Positions 1,868 to 59,882 of a stretch of 59,882 nt of DNA are shown here, in pieces; within the stretch, counting starts at the first letter, position 1, and each line of letters begins with the position of its first letter. The position numbers were made by a program, and so were the translations under genes. The notes below the pieces were generated by a model, which saw only the letters and a list, made by a program, of their open reading frames with translations, was not told where the DNA came from and searched no databases. Origin of the DNA: Thermoanaerobaculia bacterium. Lineage in GTDB: Bacteria > Acidobacteriota > Thermoanaerobaculia > Multivoradales > UBA5704. The stretch spans positions 1 to 59,882 of the forward strand of contig DATANP010000366.1 in the NCBI GenBank assembly GCA_036266195.1. Direction: 5' to 3'.

Positions 1868-3195
1868 GACCCGGCCGGTTGCTGATCCGTGCGCTCCTCG
1901 GCCTCTGCCTGGCCGCGCTGCTGGTGCCGTTCGTGCCGGCGCTCGTCTGGATTCTGGGCCTGGGGCTCGCGGCGATCCTGGCGATGGCGCTCCTCGAAGC
2001 CTTGGAGCTGCGCCGGTTGACAGTCACCGCGGAGCGGCCGAAGGCGTGGGTCCTCTCGCTGGACGAGGACGAGGTCCTGGCGCTGCGGATCACCACCTCG
2101 GCGCGCCGGCCCGTCTCGCTCACGGTCCGCCAGGTCTGGCCGCGGCTTCTGGAGCAGCCGTCGAGCGTGTTCCAGGGCGTCTGCCGGCCGGGTGAGGTTC
2201 TCGCGCCCGAGGCGCAGGTCCGGGCGGTGGCCCGCGGCGGCGCCACGCTGGAGCCGCCCTGGGCCTCGGCCACGTTCGATGGCTGGATGGAGCGCTCGCT
2301 CCCGGCCGCGGTCCGCTCGACCGAAGGCGAGCCCGTCTCCGCCACGGAGATCACGGTGCTGCCCAACCTGCGGGCGGTGAAACGGCTGCGGGGAAGGCTC
2401 GACCGTCTCTTTCTGCAAGGTTTTGGCAGCCGCGCGGCGCCGCGCCTGGGCAAGGGCCGCGATTTCGACCGCCTGCGCGAATATGTGATCGGCGACGACC
2501 TGCGCGACGTGGCCTGGAAGGCCTCGGCCCGGCATCGCAAGCTCATCACACGCGAGTATCGGCTCGACCGCTCGCAGGACATCCTGATCTGCCTCGACCG
2601 CGGGCACCGGATGGCCGCCCGCGTCGCGCACGTGACGCGCCTCGACCACGCCGTCAACGCCGCGGTGCTCCTCGCTTCGATCTGCAACCGCATGGAAGAT
2701 CGATTCGGCCTGCTCTCCTTCGCCGACTCCGTGGAACAGGGCCTGGCACAGGGGCGCGGCCCGGGCCATCTGCGCAAGATCACCGGCTATGCGGCCGGCA
2801 TCATGCCCGAGTATCTCCACACCGACTATCTCGCGCTGGGTGCCCATCTGCGGAGGCGGCTGCACAGCCGCGCACTGGTGCTGATCCTCACCGCCCTGCC
2901 CGAGCTCGAAGGCGAAGGAGAGATCGTGCGCGCGGTCGAGATGCTCGTGCCGCAGCACCTGCCCGTGGTGATCGTTTTTTCCGACCCGGCCATGGCTGCG
3001 GCAGCCAACTTCCTGCCCGAGGACAAGCCCGAGCTCTGCCGCACGCTGGTGGCGCGGGACCTCTGGCTGGAGCGCCGCAAGGTGCTGGCGGAGCTGCGCC
3101 GGCGGGGCGCGCTCGTGGCCGAGACCGCGCCCGGCGACGCCGGCCTTCAGGCCGTCAACAGCTATCTCGAGGTCAAGCGGAGGCAGCTCCTCTGA
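1864..3195 (+). CDS. DUF58 (vWA-like) domain protein
   Basis: Diagnostic stretch GKGRDFDRLREYVIGDDLRDVAWKASARHRKLITREY, two N-terminal TM helices, and a GTGA start/stop overlap with MoxR. Confidence 0.88.
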
Positions 3196-24688: not shown

Positions 24689-40521
<15,833 letters not shown>

Positions 40522-45957: not shown

Positions 45958-46239
45958 AAAGCTTCTCGCTCGGTGGATTTCACGTCTCCCGGCAAGACGG
46001 GGATGCTCCGCGCCGGAGGAAGGGGGGTTCGCATCCGCGCATCCGCGCCGAAGCGAAGCACTCTAGATTACCACGACCGGCCCCCGATCGGCCCCTCTTC
46101 TACTGTTAGTGCCGCCGGGTTCCCGCGGTGGGACAACTCCTTGAAGGGAATACGGAAAACGCGGGCGGGGGGCGCCGGATGGAGGGTGTTTTCTCTCCAG
46201 GCTGAACCGCACGAGGGCCCTCACCCCCGGCCCCCGTTT

Positions 46240-46761
46240 TCACTGGGAGCGCCGGCGTCGGGCCGCTGGTTGCCGACCGTCCGCAATCCCTGGCGGGTCG
46301 TCCGCAACTCTCTGCCGGCCATCGGCAACGCCCTGCCGGTGATCGGCCGACATCTGCCGAGGATCGGCAACTCTCTGCCGGTCATCCGCAATCACCTGCG
46401 GACGATCGGCAAACGTCTGCTGACTGTCGGCAACCCTCTGCCAGTCATCCGCGACGATCTGCGGGCGGTTGGCCAACGCCTGCGGATCGTCGGCCACGCT
46501 CTGCCGAACATCCGCAACCGACTGCCGACCCTCGGCAGACGCTCGCGGATCGATCAGGGAACAGATCCTCGACCTCCACCTGAAGGCCGGGCAGCATACC
46601 GAGGTCACCGTCTCCCCGACTCCCCCACTGCAGAACTCGACGTAGCGATCCTCGCTCAAGGTATGGATCACGACCCTCCGCGCCTTGGGATCGACAATCC
46701 AGTGCCAGATCTGTCCGTCATGGTCCTCGGGAGTTGGCAGGGTGTAGGCCGGTTCGGACAT
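46240..46761 (-). CDS. Hypothetical ORF: Uma2-family (DUF820) C-terminal fragment fused to ~13 heptad repeats; possibly a gene remnant
   Basis: ATG46761 follows GAGAGG. IWHWIVDPKARRVVIHTLSEDRYVEF..GETVTS resembles the EYWIVDP...V.VY.L..G.Y end of Uma2 endonucleases, but the N-terminal two-thirds of that fold is absent. The rest is (V/I)ADxRQx repeats encoded by the 21-bp array. Confidence 0.35.
   Translation of the reverse strand: MSEPAYTLPTPEDHDGQIWHWIVDPKARRVVIHTLSEDRYVEFCSGGVGETVTSVCCPAFRWRSRICSLIDPRASAEGRQSVADVRQSVADDPQALANRPQIVADDWQRVADSQQTFADRPQVIADDRQRVADPRQMSADHRQGVADGRQRVADDPPGIADGRQPAARRRRSQ
46257..46550. repeat. 21-bp tandem array, ~13-14 units (consensus about atcggcaacNctctgccgNNc)
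   Basis: Units read directly: cgtccgcaactctctgccggc / catcggcaacgccctgccggt / gatcggccgacatctgccgag / gatcggcaactctctgccggt ... The array is contiguous with no spacers. It is open in frame on both strands. Confidence 0.9.
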
Positions 46762-47131
46762 GGAGACCTCTCGTTCCGAATCGAGGGTAACGCCCCAGGC
46801 GGGAAGCGTCAAGCCACGTCCCGCGTCGCCGGAGGCCGTAACATGCGACGCCCTACTGCGCAACCCCGGGCTGGGGAGAGACATCCTGGCGACGTTCAAG
46901 CTTGTCGCAAACTCCTCCCGATTTGACGCAAATCCCGGCTCCGCAGAGGCCGCAACCCGGTTTTCCGCCGCCGCGCCCGGGATTTTTGACGCGAATCACC
47001 CGTGTTCTGACGCGACAATTCAGGGGGCAGACCCTGCCCATCCAATTGTTGCGACAAAAATCACGGGTTTGGGGACAGGTTTCGGGCCTTCGCCCTCGGA
47101 CAGGCAGGCCTACAGCGAAGCGCAGGAATTC

Positions 47132-48088
47132 TCAGAGGCCGAGATCGTCCAGCGAGGACGCCGCGAAGAGTCTCCTGCCAATCTTCTTGAGCTCTTCGGG
47201 ATCCCGGATGCTCTCGATCCGATGGCGAAGCGTATGTGGCAAGGGGCCAAATCGTTCTTCGATCTGAGAGAGAAGAAAGTCCTGGCGGCCCTGCTGGCGG
47301 CCTTGCTGGAGGCCCTCCTCCAGGCCTTCCTTCTTCCACTCCTGGGTCCATTCCATGACTCGCTCTGCGAGCATTGTGTGGATCTCCTCCAGACTCCCGG
47401 TCTCCGCCAGGGAGACTCCTGGAAACTTTGCCGGTATCAAAACCTGCGTGAGCCAGCTCCGTACCGACCTCCGCAGACTGTCATCAAGCTCCGGAACAGC
47501 CGTCAGACGGCCCACCTCCTGCTTCAAGGCCTCCAGATCGCGGCTCTTCTCCAGTCGGAACAGGGCCGCGGCCAGGTTCCGCTCGGACTCGAGCTCCATC
47601 TCCGGAATCTGCGACTCGTCCAGCAGAGCGTAGCGCAGATGGGGACGATAGGCTTCGAGCCCGCCGGGTACCGCCTCGATCAGGTCGGCTACGTCCGAGG
47701 CGGCCTGCCAGGGCCGCTTCCCATTGTACAGGACCAGGATGAAGACCGGCGGCAGTTTGCCCGAGGGGGTAAAGGCCTTCTGTTTGAGCAGATCCTGGTA
47801 GAGAAGGACCTGGTATTCCAACACCCGCAGCGCCATGTGCGGGTCCACCGAGGATTGGAACTCCAGCAGGATGTAGACGTACAGAAAACGGTCCCGCCAT
47901 CGGACCTTCCACAGCATGTCGCTCTCGCGGGCCCTGAGGCTTTCGTGGACGTACGAGCCCTCCACACGCTCCAGCGTCTGGAAGTCGACCTCCTTGACCC
48001 AATCCTCCCTGACAAAGCCGCGCAGCAGGTCCGCCACTACCGCGGCATGGGAGAAGAGAAGCTTGTAGCCGGCATCGTGTCGCGCCAT
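47132..48088 (-). CDS. Rpn-family recombination-promoting nuclease / putative transposase (PD-(D/E)xK), with DUF4351-like C-terminus
   Basis: HDAGYKLLFSH...ADLL N-terminus, SDMLWKV...YVYILLEFQS (D...ExQ core), and a C-terminal EGLEEGLQQGRQQGRQDFLLSQIEERFGPLP segment typical of the family. GC is lower than in the flanking NRPS genes. Confidence 0.8.
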   Translation of the reverse strand: MARHDAGYKLLFSHAAVVADLLRGFVREDWVKEVDFQTLERVEGSYVHESLRARESDMLWKVRWRDRFLYVYILLEFQSSVDPHMALRVLEYQVLLYQDLLKQKAFTPSGKLPPVFILVLYNGKRPWQAASDVADLIEAVPGGLEAYRPHLRYALLDESQIPEMELESERNLAAALFRLEKSRDLEALKQEVGRLTAVPELDDSLRRSVRSWLTQVLIPAKFPGVSLAETGSLEEIHTMLAERVMEWTQEWKKEGLEEGLQQGRQQGRQDFLLSQIEERFGPLPHTLRHRIESIRDPEELKKIGRRLFAASSLDDLGL

Positions 48089-48131: not shown

Positions 48132-51100
48132 TCACAAAGCGGAAGACGTTCGCTGCGCCCGCTCCGCCGCCTCCAGGCTGAGGCGCAGGCGCTGGGCCAG
48201 GGTGCGGACGTGCGGCTCGGCGAGGAGGTTGAGGTGGTGGCCCGGCACGGGTACGATCTCGACCGGCTCCGTCGTGAGACGGCTCCAGCCGAAGTCCCCG
48301 ACTTCCTCGTCCGCCCGGAAGAGGATGACGGGGCCCGCGTACGGCCTGGGCTCGTAGAGGCTCGCCGCGCGGGCGTTGGCCTTGTAGACGTCCAGCACCC
48401 GGGTCACCTGCTCCAGGCCCGTCCCGGGCGGCAGGAAGTCGGCCTGGCGGAGGGCCTCCAGCAGGCGGGCGCGCTGCTCCTCGGGCGCGAGACCTTCCAG
48501 ATCGTCGCGGGTGAGATCCAGCTTCTTGCCCCAAAGGTTCTCGACGTAGGCCGCCATGTCGGCCAGGAAGGCGGCATCATCCTCCAGGGCTCCCTGGCTC
48601 GTGGGGCCCGCGATCTCGGGCGAAGCATCGAGGAGGGCCAGGAGCGCGACCTCGTCTCCCTGCTCGCGGAGCTTGCGCGCCATCTCCCAGGCGATCAGGC
48701 CGCCCAGCGACCAGCCTCCGAGACGGTAGGGGCCGGCGGGCTGGACCTTCTTCATCTCCTCGATATAGAGAGCCGCCATGTCCTCGATCCGGCCGAGAGG
48801 CGCCTCGTTTCCGGAGAGACCCCGCGACTGGAGGCCGTAGACCGGCTGGTCCGGACCCAGATACCGGCCGAGCGCCGCGAAGCAGAGCACGTCGCCGCCG
48901 GCCGGGTGGACCAGGAAGAGGGGCGGCTCCGTGCCGAGCGCCTGGATCGGCACCAGGATGGACCCGGTCTCCTCCGCCTCGCCGCGCAGGCGCGCGGCCA
49001 TGGACTCGACCGTGCCGCCCTGGAAGAGGACCGCCAGCGGCAGCTCCCTGCCGAAGCGCTCCTGGACGCGGGCCATCAGGCGGACGGCCATCAGCGAGTG
49101 GCCGCCCAGCTCGAAGAAGTCGTCCCGCACGCCGACGCGCGGCACGTCCAGCACCTCGGCCCAGATTCGCGCCAGCGCCAGCTCCAGCACGTCCCTGGGC
49201 TCGACGCGCTCGCCCGTGGCTCCGGCTCCGCCGAGGTGCGCCAGGGCGAGGCGGTCCAGCTTGCCGGTCGGGGTCAGGGGCAGCGCCTCCAGGAAGAGGA
49301 AGCCGGCGGGGACCATGTAGTCGGGCAGCCGGCCGCGCAGGTGCTCGCGGAGCTGGGCGCCGAGATCCTGGCGCTCCTCAGAGACGGCCGGACTCGGGAC
49401 GACGCAGGCCATGAGCCGGCGGCCCCCCTCTTCGCGGACGAAGACCGCGCACTCGGCCACGAGCGGGTGCCTGGCGAGCGCCGCCTCGATCTCGCCCAGC
49501 TCGATGCGCAGGCCGCGGATCTTCACCTGGCGGTCGACGCGGCCGAGGAACTCGATGTCGCCGCCTGGGAGCCAGCGCGCCAGATCGCCCGTCCGGTAGA
49601 GGCGTTCCCCCGGGCCTCCGAATGGATTGGGAACGAAGCGCTCGGCCGTCAGCCCGGGCCGGTTCAGGTAGCCCCGGGTGAGACCGGCGCCGGCGATGCG
49701 CAGCTCCCCCGGCACCCCCGCCGGGACGATCTCGCCGTGCGGATCGACCAGGTAGGCGCGCGTGTTGCCGATGGGCCGGCCGATCGGCGGCTCCTTTCTA
49801 TAGGAACCCCGGCAGCTCAGCACGGTCGAGTAGACGGTCGTCTCGGTCGGACCGTAACAGTTGAGGAGGCGCGACAGGCCCGACTGCGGCGGCGCCCAGC
49901 GGGTCGCCACCTCGCCCGGACAGGAGTCGCCGCCCACGCTCACCACCCGCAGCGAGGGCAGGTCGGCGTCTCCCGATACCGGCATGGCCCCGAGCACGGC
50001 CGGGGTCAGGACCGCGGTGGTGATCCCCTCGCGGCGGATCATTTCGGCCACGGCCTCGCCGGACATCCGGGTCTCGCGCCGGCTGACGCACAGGGTCGCC
50101 CCCGCGGCGAGCGCCATCCAGGTCTCCAGGACCGAGGCGTCGAAGCTGAAGGAGACCGACTGCAGCACCCGGCTTTCCGGTCCCACCTGGAAGTGCTCCA
50201 CGGCCTGGAGGATGAGCTGCACGGCCGTGCGGTGCGTCACCTGGACTCCATTCGGGCGCCCGGTGGAGCCCGAGGTGTAGATCACATAGGCGAGGTTGTC
50301 CGGATGGGCCTCCAGCAGGACAGCCTCGGGCTCCTCGGCAGGCCGGTCGAGGCAGACGATCTCGGCGTCGGTCTCGGGCAGGACCGCGAGCAGGTCCTGA
50401 TGGGTCAGGATGACACGCGCCTGCGAGTCCTCCAGCATCCAGGCCAGGCGATCGCCGGGGTGGGAGGGATCGAGCGGCAGGTAGGCGCCACCGGCTTTGA
50501 ACACCGCGACAACCGCGACGAGCCGGTCCAGGCCGCGCTCCAGACAGAGCCCCACCAGGCTCTCCGGCCCGACTCCCATCGCAGAGAGACGCCGGGCGAG
50601 GCGTTCGGCCCCGGAGTCCAGCTCGCCGTAGGTGAGGCTCTCGCCTTCGTAGGTGACAGCCAAGGCCTCCGGGTTCCGGACGACGGACGCCTCGAAGAGG
50701 TGGTGCAGGCAGAGATCGCCCGGCTCGGACCACGCGGTATCGTTCCACTCCTCCAGGATCTGGAGGGTCTCGGCCGGGGTGAGGAGCGGCAGGTCCGCGA
50801 GCGGGCGGCCGGGGTCCGCGACGGCCGCGGCGAGGACGGTGCGCAGGTGGCCGGACATGCGCTCGACGGTCGCGGCGTCGAAGAGGTCGGTGCTGTATTC
50901 CCAGCCGCCGGTCAGGACCTCCTCGTCGCTGAACGAGAGGAGAAGGTCGAGCTTGGCGGTGCCGCTGTCGAGGTCGAGCGGCTCCAGGGTCATGCCGGGC
51001 AGCTCCAGGGCTCCGGACGGCGCGTTCATCAGGGAGAAGACCGCCTGGTAGAGCGGATGCCGGGCCAGGCTGCGCTCGACCTGCATCTCCTGCACGAGGC

Positions 51101-52607
51101 GCTCGAAGGGCAGGTCCTGATGGGCGTAGGCGCCGAGCGCGGCGGCGCGCACGCGCTGGAGCAGGTCGCGGAAGGCCGGCTCGCCGTCGAGCCGGCCGCG
51201 CAGGGTGACGGCGTTGACGAACAGGCCGATCAGCCCCTCGACCTCGGGCCGGACGCGGTTCGCGATCGGCGAGCCCACGAGCACGTCCCGCTGGCCGGTA
51301 TAGCGGTGCAGCAGGGTCAGGAAGCCGGCGAGGAGGGTCATGAAGAGGGTGCCGCCCTCGCGCCGGCCGAACGTCCGGACGTCGGCCGACAGTCCGGCCG
51401 GGATCGTCACCGGCCGGCTCGCGCCGCGGAAGCTCTGCACCGCCGGGCGCGGCCGGTCCGTGGGCAGCTCCAGCAGGGTGGACGCGCCGGCCAGCTCCCG
51501 CTTCCACCAGGCGATCTGCGAGTCGAGCACCGGGCCGGAGAGCCAGCGCCGCTGCCAGGTAACGTAGTCGGAGTAGCGGACCGGCAGCTCCGGCAGGCCA
51601 TGACCTTCATACAGCGCGGCCAGCTCGCGGACGAAGACGCCCACGGACCAGCCGTCGCTCACGATGTGGTGCATGTTGACGAAGATCACCCACTCCTCCG
51701 GCGCCGTCCGGAGCAGGAGCATCCTCAGGAGCGGCCCGTGGCCGAGGTCGAACGGCCGCGACGCCTCGGTCCGCGCCTGGCGCAGGGCCTCGGCCTCGCG
51801 CCGGTCCGGAGGCAGGGCCGTGAGATCCACCACAGGCATGGGGGCCTGGACTTCCGTCTCGAACCTCTGCCAGGGCTCCCCCTCCTCCTGGTGGAAGGTG
51901 GCGCGGAGCGGCTCGTGGCGAAGGACGATGCCGTCGAGCGCCGATCTCAGGGCGGCCAGATCGAGCTGGCCCGTGGCACGAAGCGCGGCCGGGACGCTGT
52001 AGAGCGCGCCGCCCGGATCCATGCGGTCGAGGAACCAGAGGCGCTCCTGGGCGTAGGAGAGCGGGCTCCAATCATCCAGATCCGCCGACACGATAGGCGG
52101 CAGCAGCACGCTCGATCCCACCCAGGGCTCGGCCGCGATCCGCCGCGCGAGGTCGTCCAGGCGGGGCGTCTCGAACAGGACGCGCACGGGCAGCTCGACG
52201 CCGAACACGTCGCGGACCCGCGACATCAGGCGGGTCGCGAGGAGCGAGTGGCCGCCCAGATCGAAGAAGCTGTCGTCGCTCCGCACGTCCTGGACGCCGA
52301 GCAGGTCGGTCCAGAGGAATGCCAGCAGCTCCTCGGCCGGGGTGAGGAGAGCCGCGCCCTCCCGTTCCGGCCCGGCCGGCTCGATACGGGCGAGCGCCCG
52401 ACGGTCCACCTTGCCGTTGGGCGTCAGCGGCAGGGCGTCCAGGAAGACCCAACCGGTCGGGATCATGGCTTCGGGCAGGCGGGCCGCGAGGAAGTCGCGG
52501 ACCTCACCCCCTGTCCCCCTCTCCCGTCTCCCACCCGCCCGACCCCGGGAGAGGGGGAACGCCTCTGAGGCCTCTTCCTGCGATCTCGGCAACTCCGCCC
52601 CAGTCAC
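48132..52607 (-). CDS. NRPS-C (1491 aa): (C-terminal A-subdomain remnant A9-A10)-T-C-A-T-TE
   Basis: After 35 repeat-derived residues it begins with [37 protein letters not shown] (A9/A10 motifs). T Ser codons at 52245 and 49095. HHIVSDGWS at 51666. A3 core near 50241-50290. TE GWSLGG at 48698-48720. GTG52607 overlaps the NRPS-D stop (GTGA). Confidence 0.9.
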   Translation of the reverse strand: MTGAELPRSQEEASEAFPLSRGRAGGRRERGTGGEVRDFLAARLPEAMIPTGWVFLDALPLTPNGKVDRRALARIEPAGPEREGAALLTPAEELLAFLWTDLLGVQDVRSDDSFFDLGGHSLLATRLMSRVRDVFGVELPVRVLFETPRLDDLARRIAAEPWVGSSVLLPPIVSADLDDWSPLSYAQERLWFLDRMDPGGALYSVPAALRATGQLDLAALRSALDGIVLRHEPLRATFHQEEGEPWQRFETEVQAPMPVVDLTALPPDRREAEALRQARTEASRPFDLGHGPLLRMLLLRTAPEEWVIFVNMHHIVSDGWSVGVFVRELAALYEGHGLPELPVRYSDYVTWQRRWLSGPVLDSQIAWWKRELAGASTLLELPTDRPRPAVQSFRGASRPVTIPAGLSADVRTFGRREGGTLFMTLLAGFLTLLHRYTGQRDVLVGSPIANRVRPEVEGLIGLFVNAVTLRGRLDGEPAFRDLLQRVRAAALGAYAHQDLPFERLVQEMQVERSLARHPLYQAVFSLMNAPSGALELPGMTLEPLDLDSGTAKLDLLLSFSDEEVLTGGWEYSTDLFDAATVERMSGHLRTVLAAAVADPGRPLADLPLLTPAETLQILEEWNDTAWSEPGDLCLHHLFEASVVRNPEALAVTYEGESLTYGELDSGAERLARRLSAMGVGPESLVGLCLERGLDRLVAVVAVFKAGGAYLPLDPSHPGDRLAWMLEDSQARVILTHQDLLAVLPETDAEIVCLDRPAEEPEAVLLEAHPDNLAYVIYTSGSTGRPNGVQVTHRTAVQLILQAVEHFQVGPESRVLQSVSFSFDASVLETWMALAAGATLCVSRRETRMSGEAVAEMIRREGITTAVLTPAVLGAMPVSGDADLPSLRVVSVGGDSCPGEVATRWAPPQSGLSRLLNCYGPTETTVYSTVLSCRGSYRKEPPIGRPIGNTRAYLVDPHGEIVPAGVPGELRIAGAGLTRGYLNRPGLTAERFVPNPFGGPGERLYRTGDLARWLPGGDIEFLGRVDRQVKIRGLRIELGEIEAALARHPLVAECAVFVREEGGRRLMACVVPSPAVSEERQDLGAQLREHLRGRLPDYMVPAGFLFLEALPLTPTGKLDRLALAHLGGAGATGERVEPRDVLELALARIWAEVLDVPRVGVRDDFFELGGHSLMAVRLMARVQERFGRELPLAVLFQGGTVESMAARLRGEAEETGSILVPIQALGTEPPLFLVHPAGGDVLCFAALGRYLGPDQPVYGLQSRGLSGNEAPLGRIEDMAALYIEEMKKVQPAGPYRLGGWSLGGLIAWEMARKLREQGDEVALLALLDASPEIAGPTSQGALEDDAAFLADMAAYVENLWGKKLDLTRDDLEGLAPEEQRARLLEALRQADFLPPGTGLEQVTRVLDVYKANARAASLYEPRPYAGPVILFRADEEVGDFGWSRLTTEPVEIVPVPGHHLNLLAEPHVRTLAQRLRLSLEAAERAQRTSSAL
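48135..48960 (-). other. Thioesterase (TE) domain of NRPS-C
   Basis: PPLFLVHPAGGDVLCF ... RLGGWSLGGLIAWEMA. A close paralogue of the NRPS-A TE. Boundaries are approximate. Confidence 0.9.
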
Positions 52608-52666
52608 GTCCCCCCTCTCCCGGCGGGGGGTGGACGGGAGATGGGAGAGGGGACAGGGGGTGAGGT
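52501..52666. repeat. 166-bp nested palindromic GC-rich element (MITE/REP-like) inserted in an A domain
   Basis: Outer arms are acctcaccccctgtccccctctcccgtctcccacccgcc (52501-) and ggcggggggtggacgggagatgggagaggggacagggggtgaggt (-52666). Inner arms are ccgggagagggggaac and gtcccccctctcccgg. Four GGGAGAGGGG motifs occur in alternating orientation. Confidence 0.85.
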
Positions 52667-55600
52667 CACGACGTAGGCCACCAGCCGACCGTCGCGGGCC
52701 AGCACGGCCGCCTCGCGCACGCCGGGACTCTGCGCAAGCACGGCCTCGATCTCGCCCAGCTCGACGCGGAAGCCGCGGATCTTGACCTGATGGTCGAGGC
52801 GGCCGAGGAACTCGATCTCGCCGCCGGGCAGGAAGCGCGCGAGGTCGCCGGTCCGGTAGAGGCGCTCTCCGCTTTTCCCGGTCAACCCGCCGAACGGGTC
52901 GGGCGCGAAGCGCTCGGCCGTTAGGTCCGGCCGGTTGCGATACCCGCGCGCGAGCCCGGCGCCGGCCACGAAGAGCTCTCCCGGCACCCCGGCCGGCACG
53001 GGCCCGAGCGCCCGATCGAGCAGGTAGACGCGCACGTTGGCGATCGGACGGCCGATGGCCGGCATCCGGTCGCCGCTTGGATCGACGGGATCGGCGGTCG
53101 CGACGACCGTGCCCTCGGTGGGGCCATAGTGGTTGACGAGCGCGAACGGCGCGTCCGCGGAGGGCCGGCGGTGGAGGCGGTCGCCGCCGGTGACCACCAC
53201 GCGCAGCTCCAGCCCGGCCGGCAGGGGCTCAGCCAGGACGGCCTCGGCGAGCGGCGTGGGCAGGAACGACTGGGTGATCCGCTCCGCGGCCATCCAGGCC
53301 ACCAGGTCCGGAGGCGAGGCCACGGTCTCCTGCGGCGGCACGTGGAGCGCGGCACCGGAAGCGAGCGCCGGCCAGACCTCCCAGACCGACGCGTCGAAGC
53401 CCGGACCGGCCAGCAGGGTCGTCCGGTCGCCCGCGCCGGGACCGTAGGTCCGCCGGTGCCAGGCCGTGAGGTTCGAGAGACCCGCGTGGGTCAGCTCCGT
53501 GCCCTTGGGCGCGCCCGTGGAGCCGGACGTATAAATGACATAGGCCAGGAGATCCGTGTGTCCGGCCGGCTCCAGGGGCTCCTCGCTCTCGTCGGCGAGA
53601 TCCCCTACCTCGCGGAGGAGCAGGAGGGCTCCGGAGTCGGCCACGGTGTAGGCGAGGCGCTCTTCGGGGTGGGACGGATCGAGCGGCAGGTAGGCGCCGC
53701 CGGCCTTGAGCACGGCCAGCTCGGCGAGCACCAGCTCCGGCGAGCGCGGGATGCAGACGGCCACGACCGTCTCCGGTCCCACGCCGAGACGCCGCAGCCG
53801 GCGGGCCAGACGGTTGGCGCCCCGGTCGAGCTCGCCGTAAGTAAGAGACCCGTGCGCGGAGACCACGGCGGGCGCGTCGGGCCGCTCGCGGGCCTGGCGC
53901 TCGAACAGGAGATGGACCGGCTCCTTCGGCAGGTCCATCTCCGTCGCGTTCCACTCGCCCAGGATCTGGCGCGTCTCGCCCGGGGTGAGCAGCGGCAGGT
54001 CTTCGAGGTGGCGTCCCGGATCCTCGACGGCGCCGGCGAGCAGCGTCTCGAAGTGGCCGAGCAGGCGCACGATCGTCGCCCGGTCGAAGAGATCCGAGGC
54101 GTACTCGACGCCGCCCGTAAGCGTGCCGCCGGTCTCCGAGAGCGACAGGGTCAGGTCGAACTTCGCGGTGCTCCCCTGGGCGTCGGCCGGCGCCAACAGG
54201 AGGCCGGGCAGCTCGACGGCTCCCGAGGGCAGGTTCTGGAGCGCGAACGTCACCTGGACGAGCGGGCTGTGCGCGAGGCTCCGCTCGACCCGCAGCTCTT
54301 CAACCAAGCGCTCGAACGGCAGATCCTGGTGCGCGAACGCGCCGAGCGCGGAGGTCCGCACGCGGCCGAGAATCTCCTGGAAGCCCGCGTCGGCGAGCCT
54401 GCCGCGCAGGACCAGGGTGTTGACGAAGAAACCGATCAGCCCCTCCAGCTCCAGCCGTCCGCGGCCGGCCACGGGCGAGCCCACGAGCAGATCATCCTGG
54501 CCGGTGTAGCGCGCCAGGAGCGCCTCGAAGCCGGCGAGGAGCGTCATGAACAGCGTGGCTCCCTCGCGCCGCGCCACCTCCGCCAGCGAGGCGGCCAGAT
54601 TCGCGGGCAGCGCGACGGCCTCCACCGCGCCGCGGTAGCTCTGCACTGCGGGCCGCGGCCGGTCGGTGGGCAGCTCCAGGAGCGCCGGAGCCCCGTCCAG
54701 CTCGGCGCGCCACCAGGCGAGCTGAGCCTCCAGGACCTCGTCCTGCAGCCACTGCCGCTGCCAGGCCGCGAAGTCGGCGTACTGCACGGGCAGCCCGGGC
54801 AGGGAGCGGCCGGCGTACAGGGCCGACAGCTCCTGGACCAGGATGCCGAATGACCAACCGTCTCCCGCGATGTGATGGAGGTTGAAGAGCGCGAGCCAGT
54901 CCCGCTCGTCCAGGCGGACGAGCCCGGCACGCAGCAGGGGCCCGCGCCGGAGATCGAACGGCCGCACCGCCTCCTCGGCCGCCAGCCGCAGGGCCTCGGC
55001 CTCACTGTCCGGCAGGGCTCGCAGATCGATCACGGGCAGGCGGAGCCGGACCTCCGGATCGACCACCTGGCGCGGCTCGCCGTCGATCTCCAGGAACGTG
55101 GCGCGCAGCACCTCGTGCCGGTGGGCGATTTCGCGCAACGCGGTTTCCAGGAGCGCGACGTCCACCTCCCCGGTCAGGCGCAGGGCCGACGGCATGTTGT
55201 AGAGCGGGCTCCCGGGTGTGAGGCGGTCGATGAACCACAGCCGCTCCTGGGCGAACGAGAGCGGCGCCGGGCCGCCGTCCGTCCGCCGCGGGATCGGAGG
55301 CGCGCTGGACATCGTGGCCTCGTCGATCCGCCGCGCCTGGTCAGAGAGGACCGAGGCCTCGAAGAAGGCGCGCAGCGGCAGCTCGACGCCGAACGCCTCG
55401 CGCACCCGGGACGACAGCCGCGTCGCGAGGAGCGAGTGGCCGCCGAGGTCGAAGAAGTCCGACGCGGTCCCGACCCTCTCGACTCCCAGCAGGCCGGACC
55501 ACAGCGCGGCGAGTCGCTCCTCCGTCTCCGTGCGCGGAGCCTCTCCGCTGCCGGCCTCGATCCCGGGCTCGATTCGGGCCAGCGCACGGCGGTCCACCTT

Positions 55601-58600
55601 GCCGTGCGAAGTGACGGGCAGCTCGTCCAGGAACACCCAGGCCGCGGGCATCATGTACTCGGGCAAGCGATCGGACACCCGTCCGCGCAGCGCGGGCAGC
55701 ATGTCTTCCGACGCTACGACGTAGGCCACGAGCCGCTTCGCCTCTCCCTCGCCCACCGCCAGCATCACTACCTGCCGTACTGCGGGGTGCTCGGCGAGGG
55801 TGGCCTCGATCTCGCCCAGCTCGATGCGGAAGCCGCGCACCTTGACCTGGTTGTCGATACGGCCGAGGAACTCCAGGTTGCCGTCCGCCAGCCAGCGCGC
55901 CAGGTCGCCGGTGCGGTACCAGCGCCGGCCGTCGCGCTCCACGAACTTCTCGGCGGTCAGCTCCTCCTGTCCGCGATACCCGCGCGTCACGCCCGGGCCG
56001 CCGATCCACAGCTCACCCGGCACGCCGATCGGCGCATCCATCACCCGCAGGACCGCGCCCGGCAGCGGACGCCCGAGGAGGTTGCGGTCCTCGAAGCGCT
56101 CTCCCACGGCCTCGTAGCGCGAGCAGATGATGGTGGCCTCGGTCGGCCCGTAGAGCACGGTTGCGACCGCGGCCGGGAAGGTCCTGCGGAGGTCCGACAG
56201 CAGGTCCGGCGGCACGGCGTCGCCGCCCACGAACACCCGGCGCAGCGTGGTGTTTTCGCCAACCCGCTCGACCACCTCGCGCATCAGGGCCGGCACCGCA
56301 TGAAGCAGCGTCATACGATCCAGAGACGCAGCCAGCGCGGGTACGTCGAGCGTCGGACGCAGGTCGAAGAGCACCGAGGTGCCACCCGCGAGGAGCGGCC
56401 CGAGCAACTCGAACAGGAAGATGTCGAACGAGAACGGCGCGAGGCACGGTATCCGGTCCGTGGCCGAGAAGCCGAACGCCTCCTGCGCGGCCCGCATCGT
56501 GTGCGACAGGCTGCCGTGCTCCACCTGCACGGCCTTCGGCCGGCCCGTGGTGCCCGACGTATAGATGAGGTAGGCGAGGTCGCCCGGCTCCGGATCGCGC
56601 CGGAGCAGGGTCCGCCCCGACTCCCCCACCGCCTCCAGCTCCAGGATCTCCAGGTTCCCGACCGGCAGCCCGGCGCGCAGATCCTCCAGCGAGCGCTGGG
56701 TGAGCAGGACCCGCGGCGCCGAGTCCGAGATCATGTAGGCGAGGCGCTCCGCGGGGAGCGACGGATCGAGCGGCACGTAGGCGCCGCCGGCCTTCCAGAT
56801 GCCCAGGATGGCCGCGGCGAGGTCCGGCGTGCGCTCCACGAGCAGTCCGACCCGCTCCTCCGGCCCGACCCCGAGCGCGCCCAGGCGCACGGCGATGCGG
56901 TCCGACCGGAGGTCCAGCTCGCGGTACGTGACGCTCCGGCCGTTGTGCTCGACCGCGATAGCACCCGGCGAGCGGGCCGCCCGCTCCTCGAAGAGCCGCG
57001 GTACTGGGTAGGGGGGAGCCGTCTCGGCCCTCTCCTCCACCCCGCCCCACTCGACGAGAAGCTGGTGGCGCTCCGATGCGGCGAGGAGCGGCAGATCCGC
57101 CAACGCCATGTCCGGATCGGCTGCGGCGGCTTCGAGCAGCAGACGGTAGCGGTCCACGAGCCGCCGGACCGTGGTGACGTCGAACAGGTCGGTCCGCAGC
57201 TCCACCACGATCTCCAGCGGCCCGGTCCCGGCGTCGTTCACCCCGAAGCCGAGGTCGAAGACGGAGGTGCCGATCTCGAAGTCGAACGGGCTCACGCTGA
57301 GGCCCGGCAACTCGACCGCCCCGGCACCGGCGTTCTGGACCGCGAACATCACCTGGAAGAGCGGGTTGTAGGCCAGGCTGCGCGGGATGTGCAGGTCCTC
57401 GACCAGCTTCTCGAACGGCAGGTCCTGGTGGGCGTAGGCGTCGAGCGCCGCGCGCCGGACCCGCTCCATGAACCCGGGGAAGCTCAGGCCCGGTTCGAGC
57501 CGGCCGCGCATCACGAGGGTGTTCACGAAGAAACCGATCAGCCCCTCCACCTCCAGCCGGTTGCGGTTGGCGATCGGCGAGCCCACGAGCACATCCTCCT
57601 GGCCCGTGAGGCGGCCGAGAAGCGCCTGCAGTCCCGCCATGAGGATCATGAACAGCGTGGCATCCTGCCTCTTCGCGGACTGCCGCAGTCCATCCGCCAG
57701 CTCCGCCGGCAGGACCGACGTGAGCACCGCTCCGCGGAAGGTCTGGACCGGAGGACGCGGCCGGTCCGTGGGCAGCTCCAGGAGGGCCGGTGCCCCGGCC
57801 AGCTCCTCGCGCCAGTAGGAGAGCTGGGCTTCCAGGACCTCGCCGCGGAGATGCTCGCGCTGCCAGACTGCGAAATCCGGATATTGGATCGGCAGCTCCG
57901 GCAACGGCGACGGCCGGCCCTGGGCGAATGTCTGATACAGCAGGGTACACTCGCGGACCAGCACCTCCATGGACCAGTTGTCGCTCACGATGTGGTGCAT
58001 GTTGAGGAGCACCACCTGGTCGTCCGGCCCGAGTCGGACGAGGAGCGCGCGGAACAGAGGTCCCGTGGAGAGATCGAACGGCCGGCCGGCCTCGGTCGCG
58101 AGGAGGCGGCGGGCTTCTTCAGGCACCATCCGCAAATCGATCACCGGCAGGGCGGGCACGAACGGCGCCGAGACGATCTGGACGCCCTCGCCGTCGCGCT
58201 CCGCGAACGTGGTGCGCAGCGACTCGTGGCGCCGGACGATCTCGGCCAGGGCGCGCGCCAGGGCGTCCACGTCCAGCCATCCCCTCAGGCGCAGGGCAGC
58301 CGGGATGGTGTAGGACGAGCCGCCGGGCTGCAACCGGTCGAAGAACCAGAGGCGCTCCTGCGCGAACGAGAGGGGCGCCGGGCCGTCTCCTTCGCGGCGT
58401 GGGATCCCCTGGACCGGAGATTTCGACCGCAGATGGCCCAGAGCGGCGCGCTGGGTGTCCGACATGCGCGAGCGGAGCGCGGCGAGCCGCCGCTCGCGCT
58501 CGGCGAGGCGGTCCTGGAGAGCGGCTCCGGCGGTCTCCACCTGCTTCCGCTCCGATCCGGCGAAGACCGGCAGATCGGCGACGGGCATCTCCGGCTCGCC

Positions 58601-59882
58601 CGCGGCCCGCTCCAGCAGGCCGCGCAGGTGGTCCATGATGCGGACGACCGTGGCCTCCTCATACAGGTCGGTGGAGTACTCGGCCGTGATGCGGAGCGCG
58701 GGTCCGGCCTCCTCAAAGGAGAAGGACAGGTCGAGCTTGGCGGTCTCCGACCAGGGCTCCATCCTCTCCAGCCGCGCCCCGGGCAGGTCCAGGACTGCCG
58801 TGGTCGCGCTCTGGAGCACGAGCATCACCTGGAACAGCGGGTTCCAGCCGAGGCTCCGCGGCACCTGCAGATCCTCCACCACGCGCTCGAACGGCACGTC
58901 CTGGTTCGCGTACGCGCCGAGCGCCGTCGCCTTGACCTGCGCGAGCAGCTCGCGGAAGGTCATATCCGGCCGGAGGCGGGCACGCAGGGCCAGGGTGTTC
59001 GCGAAGAAACCGATCAGGCCCTCGGTCTCGGAGCGGTTGCGGTTCGCGACGGGCGAGCCCACGACCATGTCCTCCGCGCGGATGAGCGCGAAGAGGCCCG
59101 CCAGGAGAACCATGAAAAGGCTCGCGCCTTCTCGCCGGGCCAAGGCTTCGAGGTCGGTGGCCAGGCCGGCTGGAATCGGGCCCTGGGCCAGGCGTCCGCG
59201 GAAGCTCTGCACGGCCGGGCGCTGCCGATCGCCCGGCAGCTCGGTCAAAGCCGGCGCGCCCGCCAGCTCCCGCCGCCACCAGCCGAGCTGGCGCTCCAGC
59301 GCCTCGCCCTGGAGCCGTTGCCAGACCGCGACGTCGGCGTACTGAACCGGCAGCTCGGGCAACGGAGACGGCCGGCCCTGGACGAACGCGCGGTAAAGCG
59401 CTCCCAGCTCGCGGACGAAGACGTCCATGGACCAGCCGTCGGCCACGATGTGATGGATGGTCAGAAGCACCGCATGGTCGGCCTCTCCGAGCCGCACCAG
59501 GGTCGAGCGCAGCAGCGGCCCGCGGGCGAGGTCGAACGGCCGCCGCGACTCCTCCACCGTCAACCGCCACAGCTCGCCGCTCCGCTCCGGGAGCCCGGAG
59601 AGATCGATCACGGGCAAGCCGAGGCTCGCCTCCATCGAGATCCTCTGCACCGGCCGGCCGTCCAACTCGGGCAGGGTCGTGCGCAGCGACTCGTGGCGCC
59701 GCACGATCTCGCGCAGGCTGCGGGCGAAGGCCGCCACGTCGAGGAATCCGGTCAACCTCACGCCGCCGGCGAGGTTGTAGAGCGGGCTTCCCGGAGCGAG
59801 CCGGTCGATGAACCACAAGCGTTCCTGGGCGAACGAAGGCGGCATGTCGCCTGTCCGCGGCACGCGCGGAATGGAAAGGGTT
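52604..59882 (-). CDS. NRPS-D, 5' partial: ...-C-[helical linker]-C-A-T-C-A(truncated after A8)
   Basis: The frame is open to the window edge (TLSIPRVPRTGDMPPSFAQERLWF is a T-C linker, so the GTG at 59863 is not the start). HHxxxDG at 59449 (HHIVADGWS), 57992 (HHIVSDNWS) and 54872 (HHIAGDGWS). T Ser codon at 55433. A3 cores near 56531-56580 and 53501-53550. It ends RLVAYVV + 21 repeat-derived residues + TGA, before the A9/A10 motifs. Confidence 0.93.
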   Translation of the reverse strand, partial: TLSIPRVPRTGDMPPSFAQERLWFIDRLAPGSPLYNLAGGVRLTGFLDVAAFARSLREIVRRHESLRTTLPELDGRPVQRISMEASLGLPVIDLSGLPERSGELWRLTVEESRRPFDLARGPLLRSTLVRLGEADHAVLLTIHHIVADGWSMDVFVRELGALYRAFVQGRPSPLPELPVQYADVAVWQRLQGEALERQLGWWRRELAGAPALTELPGDRQRPAVQSFRGRLAQGPIPAGLATDLEALARREGASLFMVLLAGLFALIRAEDMVVGSPVANRNRSETEGLIGFFANTLALRARLRPDMTFRELLAQVKATALGAYANQDVPFERVVEDLQVPRSLGWNPLFQVMLVLQSATTAVLDLPGARLERMEPWSETAKLDLSFSFEEAGPALRITAEYSTDLYEEATVVRIMDHLRGLLERAAGEPEMPVADLPVFAGSERKQVETAGAALQDRLAERERRLAALRSRMSDTQRAALGHLRSKSPVQGIPRREGDGPAPLSFAQERLWFFDRLQPGGSSYTIPAALRLRGWLDVDALARALAEIVRRHESLRTTFAERDGEGVQIVSAPFVPALPVIDLRMVPEEARRLLATEAGRPFDLSTGPLFRALLVRLGPDDQVVLLNMHHIVSDNWSMEVLVRECTLLYQTFAQGRPSPLPELPIQYPDFAVWQREHLRGEVLEAQLSYWREELAGAPALLELPTDRPRPPVQTFRGAVLTSVLPAELADGLRQSAKRQDATLFMILMAGLQALLGRLTGQEDVLVGSPIANRNRLEVEGLIGFFVNTLVMRGRLEPGLSFPGFMERVRRAALDAYAHQDLPFEKLVEDLHIPRSLAYNPLFQVMFAVQNAGAGAVELPGLSVSPFDFEIGTSVFDLGFGVNDAGTGPLEIVVELRTDLFDVTTVRRLVDRYRLLLEAAAADPDMALADLPLLAASERHQLLVEWGGVEERAETAPPYPVPRLFEERAARSPGAIAVEHNGRSVTYRELDLRSDRIAVRLGALGVGPEERVGLLVERTPDLAAAILGIWKAGGAYVPLDPSLPAERLAYMISDSAPRVLLTQRSLEDLRAGLPVGNLEILELEAVGESGRTLLRRDPEPGDLAYLIYTSGTTGRPKAVQVEHGSLSHTMRAAQEAFGFSATDRIPCLAPFSFDIFLFELLGPLLAGGTSVLFDLRPTLDVPALAASLDRMTLLHAVPALMREVVERVGENTTLRRVFVGGDAVPPDLLSDLRRTFPAAVATVLYGPTEATIICSRYEAVGERFEDRNLLGRPLPGAVLRVMDAPIGVPGELWIGGPGVTRGYRGQEELTAEKFVERDGRRWYRTGDLARWLADGNLEFLGRIDNQVKVRGFRIELGEIEATLAEHPAVRQVVMLAVGEGEAKRLVAYVVASEDMLPALRGRVSDRLPEYMMPAAWVFLDELPVTSHGKVDRRALARIEPGIEAGSGEAPRTETEERLAALWSGLLGVERVGTASDFFDLGGHSLLATRLSSRVREAFGVELPLRAFFEASVLSDQARRIDEATMSSAPPIPRRTDGGPAPLSFAQERLWFIDRLTPGSPLYNMPSALRLTGEVDVALLETALREIAHRHEVLRATFLEIDGEPRQVVDPEVRLRLPVIDLRALPDSEAEALRLAAEEAVRPFDLRRGPLLRAGLVRLDERDWLALFNLHHIAGDGWSFGILVQELSALYAGRSLPGLPVQYADFAAWQRQWLQDEVLEAQLAWWRAELDGAPALLELPTDRPRPAVQSYRGAVEAVALPANLAASLAEVARREGATLFMTLLAGFEALLARYTGQDDLLVGSPVAGRGRLELEGLIGFFVNTLVLRGRLADAGFQEILGRVRTSALGAFAHQDLPFERLVEELRVERSLAHSPLVQVTFALQNLPSGAVELPGLLLAPADAQGSTAKFDLTLSLSETGGTLTGGVEYASDLFDRATIVRLLGHFETLLAGAVEDPGRHLEDLPLLTPGETRQILGEWNATEMDLPKEPVHLLFERQARERPDAPAVVSAHGSLTYGELDRGANRLARRLRRLGVGPETVVAVCIPRSPELVLAELAVLKAGGAYLPLDPSHPEERLAYTVADSGALLLLREVGDLADESEEPLEPAGHTDLLAYVIYTSGSTGAPKGTELTHAGLSNLTAWHRRTYGPGAGDRTTLLAGPGFDASVWEVWPALASGAALHVPPQETVASPPDLVAWMAAERITQSFLPTPLAEAVLAEPLPAGLELRVVVTGGDRLHRRPSADAPFALVNHYGPTEGTVVATADPVDPSGDRMPAIGRPIANVRVYLLDRALGPVPAGVPGELFVAGAGLARGYRNRPDLTAERFAPDPFGGLTGKSGERLYRTGDLARFLPGGEIEFLGRLDHQVKIRGFRVELGEIEAVLAQSPGVREAAVLARDGRLVAYVVTSPPVPSPISRPPPAGRGGT
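58373..58562 (-). other. ~63-aa helical linker between two C domains in NRPS-D
   Basis: AGSERKQVETAGAALQDRLAERERRLAALRSRMSDTQRAALGHLRSKSPVQGIPRREGDGPAP, followed by LSFAQERLWF. Confidence 0.85.

Follow-up and report, generated by a model that had tools for sequence, protein, structure and literature searches.

A nested palindromic repeat in an adenylation domain of a Thermoanaerobaculia peptide synthetase, and the probable artefact behind an apparent gene split

In a 59,882-nucleotide stretch of DNA from a Thermoanaerobaculia bacterium (assembly GCA_036266195.1, contig DATANP010000366.1; the whole stretch is hereafter called the window), one adenylation (A) domain of a nonribosomal peptide synthetase (NRPS) is encoded in two pieces, by two open reading frames (ORFs) that meet inside a nested palindromic element. 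The question raised by this locus is whether the domain is really divided, and what kind of DNA has been placed in the middle of it. We consider it highly probable that the two-ORF split is an artefact of homopolymer length, or at most a rare or minor variant, lying over a real in-frame insertion of a repeat. This repeat belongs to a family that is apparently large and undescribed, and for which no known name was found.

The junction and the missing base

The NRPS genes of the window are placed on the minus strand. ORF D (52604..59863) has the Pfam layout C-A-T-C-A, with no AMP-binding_C or carrier domain at its end; its last A domain runs through a 20-residue segment and on to RLVAYVV, and then enters the repeat, of which it reads 20 codons (TSPPVPSPISRPPPAGRGGT) before a TGA at 52606-52604. 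ORF C (48132..52607) starts with a GTG at 52607-52605, reads 36 repeat-derived codons and resumes the A domain at RDFLAARLPEAMIP...NGKVDR. Its layout by Pfam is [A9-A10]-T-C-A-T-TE, with the PP-binding domain kept. The GTG of ORF C lies over the TGA of ORF D as GTGA (52604..52607, minus strand), within the variable central part of the repeat. Immediately upstream of the insert, positions 52668..52804 (minus strand) encode motif A8 and the next beta-strands of the adenylation C-terminal subdomain, that is, the first half of AMP-binding_C. The same domain is continued at 52401..52499 (minus strand) with the helix RDFLAARL, motif A9 (LPEAMIP, 52458-52478) and motif A10 (NGKVDR, 52401-52418). The insertion site lies between motifs A8 and A9, in the last-but-one A domain of the restored NRPS. 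A preliminary description of this DNA, made from the letters alone, had reported an A domain in two ORFs, a palindromic element between A8 and A9/A10, a GTGA overlap and an ORF C frame that stays open upstream across the entire element, all of which we found in the window as supplied. Its count of four copies of an internal motif also stood, and its other figures needed small corrections, from 166 bp to 168 nucleotides (nt) for the element, from 21 to 20 codons for the repeat-derived end of ORF D and from 35 to 36 for the repeat-derived start of ORF C.

The element itself occupies positions 52500..52667. It ends in perfect terminal inverted repeats of 19 nt (GACCTCACCCCCTGTCCCC), which in the public record described below, where the element measures 169 nt, are perfect over 26 nt. 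One terminal arm (52500..52525, plus strand, GACCTCACCCCCTGTCCCCCTCTCCC) was delimited by an inverted-repeat search and by comparison with other copies of the family, and carries the consensus run of five C. The opposite arm (52643..52667, plus strand, GGGAGAGGGGACAGGGGGTGAGGTC) contains a run of G at 52649-52652 that has four bases in the window and five in the record and in the family consensus. Each arm also holds a small hairpin of its own. That of the first arm (52514..52558, TCCCCCTCTCCCG ... CGGGAGAGGGGGA) represents the basic unit of the family, which resembles the repetitive extragenic palindromic (REP) sequences, and that of the second (52612..52652, CCCCTCTCCC ... GGGAGAGGGG) was identified by the inverted-repeat search. 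The motif GGGAGAGGGG is found four times where 0.71 occurrences are expected, a number that was reached in 0 of 100 shuffled sequences. As RNA the whole element is predicted to fold into one long hairpin (-150.9 kcal/mol, z = -10.9), and as DNA into a hairpin of -73.5 kcal/mol (z = -8.0). Runs of C6 and G6 are located upstream of the stop of ORF D. In a search of Rfam with the element no family reached its gathering score, and the best hits, to generic hairpin models of miRNA precursors, scored at most 27 bits where 55-137 were required; a comparison of the insert peptide with Pfam returned no family at E <= 1.

The decisive evidence comes from a second version of the same contig, the public record JGI Ga0400322_000001 (metagenome 3300037431, 59,889 nt). 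The window and the record are identical over window positions 824-34581, and over 37132-58087 there are only four differences, at 40308, at 40311, at 52537 (G versus T) and a one-base gap at 52649-52652. This gap, the sole indel, is the run of G in the second arm of the element, and the frame offset between ORF D and ORF C arises because one base is missing from it. The gene call of the record places a single NRPS gene of 3904 residues across the junction (48132..59845, minus strand), with the layout C-A-T-C-A[insert]-T-C-A-T-TE, which corresponds to ORF D plus ORF C. Translation of the record gave no stop in the 3318 codons read, and gives ...RLVAYVVTSPPVPLSHLPSTPRRERGDVTGAELPRSQEEASEAFPLSRGREGGRRERGTGGEVRDFLAARLP... 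or, over a longer stretch, ...RLVAYVVTSPPVPLSHLPSTPRRERGDVTGAELPRSQEEASEAFPLSRGREGGRRERGTGGEVRDFLAARLPEAMIP..., and VAYVVTSPPVPLSHLPSTPR and GTGGEVR would be examples of junction peptides of a translated insert. Likewise, a single ORF of 3910 codons results when the C4 run of the minus-strand 5' arm in the window is lengthened by one C, in keeping with the earlier proposal that an indel of one nucleotide would fuse the two frames. Since the record has G5 and a single ORF, neither the split nor the GTGA overlap nor the frame offset exists outside the window's version of the sequence, and the GTGA falls out of the true frame once the base is restored. An exact protein look-up of ORF C found no match because this ORF is absent from the public record.

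The length of the run is also informed by the family to which the element belongs. With a search pattern that permits either run length, 123 of 135 family arms have C5 and 12 have C4; among arms of the long type the ratio of C5 to C4 is 41:1, and both arms have C5 in 22 of 22 full copies, the usual arm being TGT-CCCCC-TCTCCC. Moreover, the symmetry of the 26-nt arms is perfect only with G5. We infer that the missing base is an error and not a real rare allele, in agreement with the first of the options that had been put forward for this locus, namely a homopolymer sequencing error.

A repeat family dispersed over several phyla

Other copies of the element were found in abundance. A scan of one genome per species with the pattern CACCCCCTGTCCCC(N0-1)TCTCCC gave at least 109 matching stretches in other genomes. 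The hosts among the matches listed include Thermoanaerobaculia, Holophagales, Terriglobia, Gemmatimonadales, Anaerolineae, Ktedonobacterales, Chloroflexales, Chthonomonadaceae, Binataceae and a few others, so that Acidobacteriota, Gemmatimonadota and Chloroflexota are among the phyla of the family. Twenty-two full copies share a common plan, (N)CCTCACCCCCTGTCCCCCTCTCCC - inner stem - CCGGGAGAGGGGG(G/A)ACG - variable centre - mirror image. Full-length copies are 72-85% identical to the window element, the best ones 80-85%, and shorter forms, consisting of a single hairpin unit or of a hairpin of 60-100 nt, are found in other phyla. Many of the 8-kb loci among the matches listed hold multiple copies, and the copies often lie at contig ends; both features are what one expects of a dispersed repeat. 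There is strong support for the view that the insert is mobile or repeated. Among the matches listed, the exact 21-nt core of the repeat was also seen in metagenome-assembled genomes (MAGs) labelled Bacteroidales, Prevotella and Rhodospirillales.

The terminal inverted repeats are conserved in 34 long copies, none of which is flanked by direct repeats that would indicate a target-site duplication; their flanks often prolong the palindrome instead. What lies between pairs of arms 0.7-0.8 kb apart is unrelated sequence, and no parent insertion sequence (IS) with the same ends was found in the 109 loci, which amount to about 0.7 Mb of context. In the sampled loci no REP-associated tyrosine transposase (RAYT, of the Y1 type) was found flanked by the same repeat, and the window has no Y1-transposase-like gene. 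Clustering of recurrent ORFs pointed to three IS200-like genes for Y1 transposases, in the sampled loci L034, L051 and L083. They were rejected as cognate enzymes, the first two being flanked by different repeats and the third lying at a distance of about 7 kb from the sole element arm of its locus. The Y1 genes of L034 (1-610) and L051 (5480-6256) are each bracketed by a distinct repeat pair of their own and resemble classic RAYT/REP arrangements that are unrelated to the element. A BLAST search of the element against plasmids gave no match and a scan of viral contigs gave no copies. A literature search with strings of the element sequence found no paper, and a keyword search for transposable elements of the miniature inverted-repeat type (MITEs) in these phyla returned community-ecology papers only.

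Elsewhere in the window, positions 46217-46235 (GCCCTCACCCCCGGCCCCC) resemble the terminal arm of the family, with three mismatches to the end of the window element, and a CCGG variant of this kind occurs in other copies. To judge from its sequence, and having neither a partner arm nor an inner hairpin, it may be a solo remnant.

The insert as a loop of adenylation domains

The A8-A9 loop measures 6-13 residues in 31 homologues and 42 in one, against 56 in the window once the base is restored. Modelling with AlphaFold of the repaired A-T region, together with 31 homologues, gave a mean predicted local distance difference test (pLDDT) score of 85.8 and a predicted template modelling (pTM) score of 0.76. 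Values of pLDDT below 50 were confined to residues 429-470, inside the insert, and the flanking strand (RLVAYVV) and helix (..RDFLAARL) were in place, with strand 414-421, helix 471-481 and the later elements being confidently predicted. In this model the insert probably forms a disordered surface loop of 56 residues, rich in Pro, Ser, Gly and Arg, at a position that is predicted to be compatible with the fold of the host protein. This is in line with the loop of about 55 residues at a length-tolerant site that had been anticipated for a fused protein. Natural and engineered interrupted A domains are known to hold whole methyltransferase or other domains between a8 and a9, sometimes between a2 and a3, with adenylation kept (PMC11355689). 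We infer that the protein of the window is made and is active with its loop. The one homologue with a long loop, a Herpetosiphonaceae NRPS (P0103), has there a segment of 42 residues, PKQNKAAGCHARRARGMAPGTENGDSALDCSVFPVLCSPQEL, which may derive from another kind of inserted DNA.

The same site is occupied in other synthetases. A word-index search with the 56-residue insert peptide found nothing, and an exhaustive HMMER search with it found two large Thermoanaerobaculia NRPSs, HEX3130209.1 and HEX3131502.1, which read ...AYVV(T/A)SPPVPLSHLP..PRRERGDVTG... at the A8-A9 site and in the frame seen in the window. HEX3130209.1 reads through the element in frame (...RLVAYVVTSPPVPLSHLPSAPRRERGDVTGMELPGLQDEASAAFPLSPRERGPGGEVLHVHLASRLPEAYMP...NGKVDRK, via LPEAYMP), and a sister module of the same protein is free of the insert (RLVAYLVGGEKEALQAHLASRLPEAYMP); HEX3131502.1 ends within the element at the same junction. 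The insert peptides of both are 81-85% identical to that of the window, whereas upstream of the insert their A domains have only 49-53% identity with that of the window, which is no higher than the identity of its paralogues in the window. The three hosts of the A8-A9 copy have in common an unusually short ARD(G/Q)xLxAYVV hairpin and the sequence RLPEA. The shared site may reflect independent entries of the element at one spot, or a C-terminal subdomain that already carried the element may have been moved by recombination. A query with an element-free fused A-T-C protein retrieved no orthologue, the best match being 62% identical, in a database that apparently holds no proteins longer than about 1400 residues.

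Further in-frame copies were found in NRPS A domains of a Holophagales MAG. One is located between A4 and A5, flanked by NQTPSAFRQL and LRLVIFGGEAL, and two, of which one is degenerate, lie just before an 11-residue stretch in the A2-A3 interval (locus L095 and the second copy of locus L105). The A4-A5 copy and the full A2-A3 copy of L095 are each enclosed by one AMP-binding alignment of Pfam. In L095 (MAG MFD04935.bin.1.7), at about 2600-3100 and downstream of the in-frame element, the NRPS frame drifts and reads ..LLRDGRRHGPQPDAVGLPAA instead of ..ERVTVLNQTPSAF, which has the look of an indel in this MAG.

The six intragenic copies that were verified are all in NRPS A domains, and most of the sampled copies look intergenic. 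Long ORFs spanning ten other copies were rejected as cases of intragenic insertion, either because no Pfam domain occurs in them or because the element is placed upstream of the true gene, and a metagenome scan for Y-x-V followed by the start of the element gave two hits, both to copies outside NRPSs. It is conceivable, if rather doubtful, that the family preferentially settles in permissive loops of NRPS A domains and is kept there in frame, rather than being a random passenger. This idea arises because three non-orthologous A domains of about 50% identity share the AYVV junction with inserts that are 81-85% identical, other copies being at a2-a3 and a4-a5.

Competing explanations, known systems and significance

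Several observations weigh against a homopolymer artefact over a simple in-frame insertion. The length of the run in the sampled population, G4 or G5, is judged from sequence versions, which do not amount to proof. Of the four positions at which window and record differ, two are inside the 168-nt element, which could mean real heterogeneity of the population, and natural C4 arms exist in other lineages (the 12 of 135 mentioned above). As to the insertion, excising the 169-nt element would not restore the frame, and no host loop residues are left between AYVV and RDFL; its history must therefore be more than a clean cut-and-paste. A rival reading is that the one-base deletion is real in at least part of the population, as a very recent inactivating frameshift or as an on/off variant of homopolymer length, with the synthetase truncated after A8 and its last 1.5 modules separated. 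The two versions of one contig differ at exactly this run, the second difference in the same element (52537, G/T) hints at heterogeneity, C4 arms are known, and both ORFs are otherwise intact, as a very recent event would leave them. We nevertheless regard such a deletion as improbable. The record has G5 and one ORF, the perfect symmetry of the arms depends on G5, a five-base run is short for phase variation based on slippage, and palindromic, homopolymer-rich and multicopy repeats are typical spots for errors of consensus or assembly. A recent pseudogenising insertion, as it had been worded in the preliminary description, is not what is seen here, the insertion being frame-compatible and only the loss of one base breaking the frame.

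The remaining two options of that description would make the split functional, and we give very little credence to either. In one of them a programmed -1 ribosomal frameshift, stimulated by the very stable hairpin, would fuse both ORFs in translation. A hairpin of -151 kcal/mol does span the overlap, the downstream frame is open through the entire element and the C6 and G6 runs precede the stop, but the zero frame from the GTG at 52669 to the TGA contains no slippery heptamer of the canonical X XXY YYZ form, and the match to a frameshift element in Rfam scores 13.8 bits against a threshold of 40. Nor is the arrangement conserved, as the record and HEX3130209.1 are simply in frame. In the other, which we hold to be just as far-fetched, the A domain would be genuinely split, with A1-A8 in one polypeptide and A9-A10-T in the following one, translation being coupled at the GTGA and the parts reassembling non-covalently. 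The overlap, a GGAG-rich tract (GGGAGAGGGGGG) placed 3-14 nt upstream of the GTG and the retention of A9, A10 and the PP-binding domain in ORF C would all suit such a design. However, the overlap and the tract, which resembles a Shine-Dalgarno sequence, are intrinsic to the repeat (ACGTGACTG is present in copy L010 as well), docking or other interaction elements are absent, and the break falls within the small C-terminal subdomain. Moreover, the record is unsplit, and so are the other two synthetases that carry the element between A8 and A9, which read on in frame at this junction.

Under the explanation that we favour, an artefactual split over a real insertion, the insert is a copy from a widespread family of nested, GC-rich palindromic repeats with an architecture similar to that of MITEs or REPINs (inverted doublets of REP sequences), in which two inverted REP-like hairpin units enclose a variable centre and are bounded by terminal inverted repeats of 19-26 nt. 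The native copy would be 169 nt long and lie in frame in the A8-A9 loop of a single NRPS gene (3904 residues as called), where it would be translated as a 56-residue loop, an event of the sort seen with Rickettsia palindromic elements (RPEs). The loss of one G/C from the five-base homopolymer of one arm would then give rise to the two-ORF arrangement of the window.

By analogy, the nearest parallel known is the way in which RPEs insert in frame into protein-coding genes (Ogata et al. 2000), as far as it is covered in the summary given in PMC10969869. According to this summary, RPEs share with our element a multicopy short palindromic repeat of about 100-200 nt, an intragenic in-frame location with a translated extra segment, and positions compatible with the protein fold. 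As in RPEs, the ORF continues in frame through the copy in the record, in L105, in L095 and in HEX3130209.1; in the window as supplied it does not. The kinship is one of analogy and not of family membership, and given the composition no sequence relationship is expected. The present family is very GC-rich, is built of nested REP-like hairpins and extends over several phyla instead of one genus. Also unlike RPEs, most of its sampled copies look intergenic, those verified as intragenic being all in NRPS A domains.

REPs are extragenic by definition and their families are usually lineage-specific. The REP and REPIN sequences mobilised by RAYTs (IS200-like Y1 transposases) resemble this family in having a short imperfect palindrome as their unit, inverted doublets that make a long hairpin, both singlets and doublets, and no target-site duplication. 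They differ from it in that no RAYT was flanked by this repeat in the sampled loci, and in that the 21-nt core is here exact across phyla. Classical MITEs such as Nezha, ERIC, BOX and Correia are likewise non-autonomous, of 60-200 nt, with terminal inverted repeats, many copies and a strong hairpin, but the family departs from them in showing no target-site duplication (34 copies). No parent IS with the same ends was found in the 109 loci sampled. Bacterial MITEs occasionally have in-frame intragenic copies (PMC10969869). Interrupted A domains of the A-M-A and A-KR-A kinds (PMC11355689) are alike in site, namely a8-a9 for the window, HEX3130209.1 and HEX3131502.1 and a2-a3 for L095 and the second L105 copy. 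They carry a catalytic auxiliary domain (M, KR or Ox), whereas the insertion described here contributes a low-complexity peptide of 56 residues that has no Pfam domain and is predicted to be disordered.

Other features of the window deserve mention. The substitutions at 40308 and 40311 (window CCCCCTCCGTCAC, record CCCCCACCCTCAC) are near the 5' end of a 5278-residue NRPS gene, and all four differences between window and record, the only ones in 57 kb, lie in contexts of C or G runs. A tandem array at 46304-46544, with a unit of 21 nt, 11.4 copies and 64% matches, and also scored with a period of 63 nt, is contained in a hypothetical gene of 190 residues without a Pfam hit, between two NRPS lines. 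In the intergenic region 46900-47110 similar short motifs can be recognised by eye (tgtcgcaacaattgg, tgtcgcgtcagaacac, gcgtcaaaaatc, tgcgtcaaatc and tgcgacaagctt). Positions 47132-48088 (minus strand) encode a protein with PF04754 (Transposase_31, YhgA/Rpn-like) and DUF4351, located between one NRPS line's TE end and the start, of the polyketide synthase-NRPS kind, of the next line. No link between this gene and the repeat was found.

The repeat family breaks assemblies, its copies often lying at contig ends, and it can cause false gene splits in the large NRPS genes of Acidobacteriota and neighbouring phyla; its recognition averts false calls of pseudogenes, of split domains and of frameshift sites. 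It also extends translated selfish palindromic DNA of the Rickettsia type to GC-rich soil bacteria and to megasynthetases. The positions at which insertions are naturally tolerated (a8-a9, a2-a3 and a4-a5) coincide with, or add to, the sites at which engineers insert domains into A domains. If the family did settle preferentially in these loops, the element would be a ready-made flexible linker or a hot-spot of recombination that could seed swaps of subdomains or interrupted A domains, and changes in the homopolymer length of its arms (G4/G5) could, within a population, act as an off/on switch for whole assembly lines.

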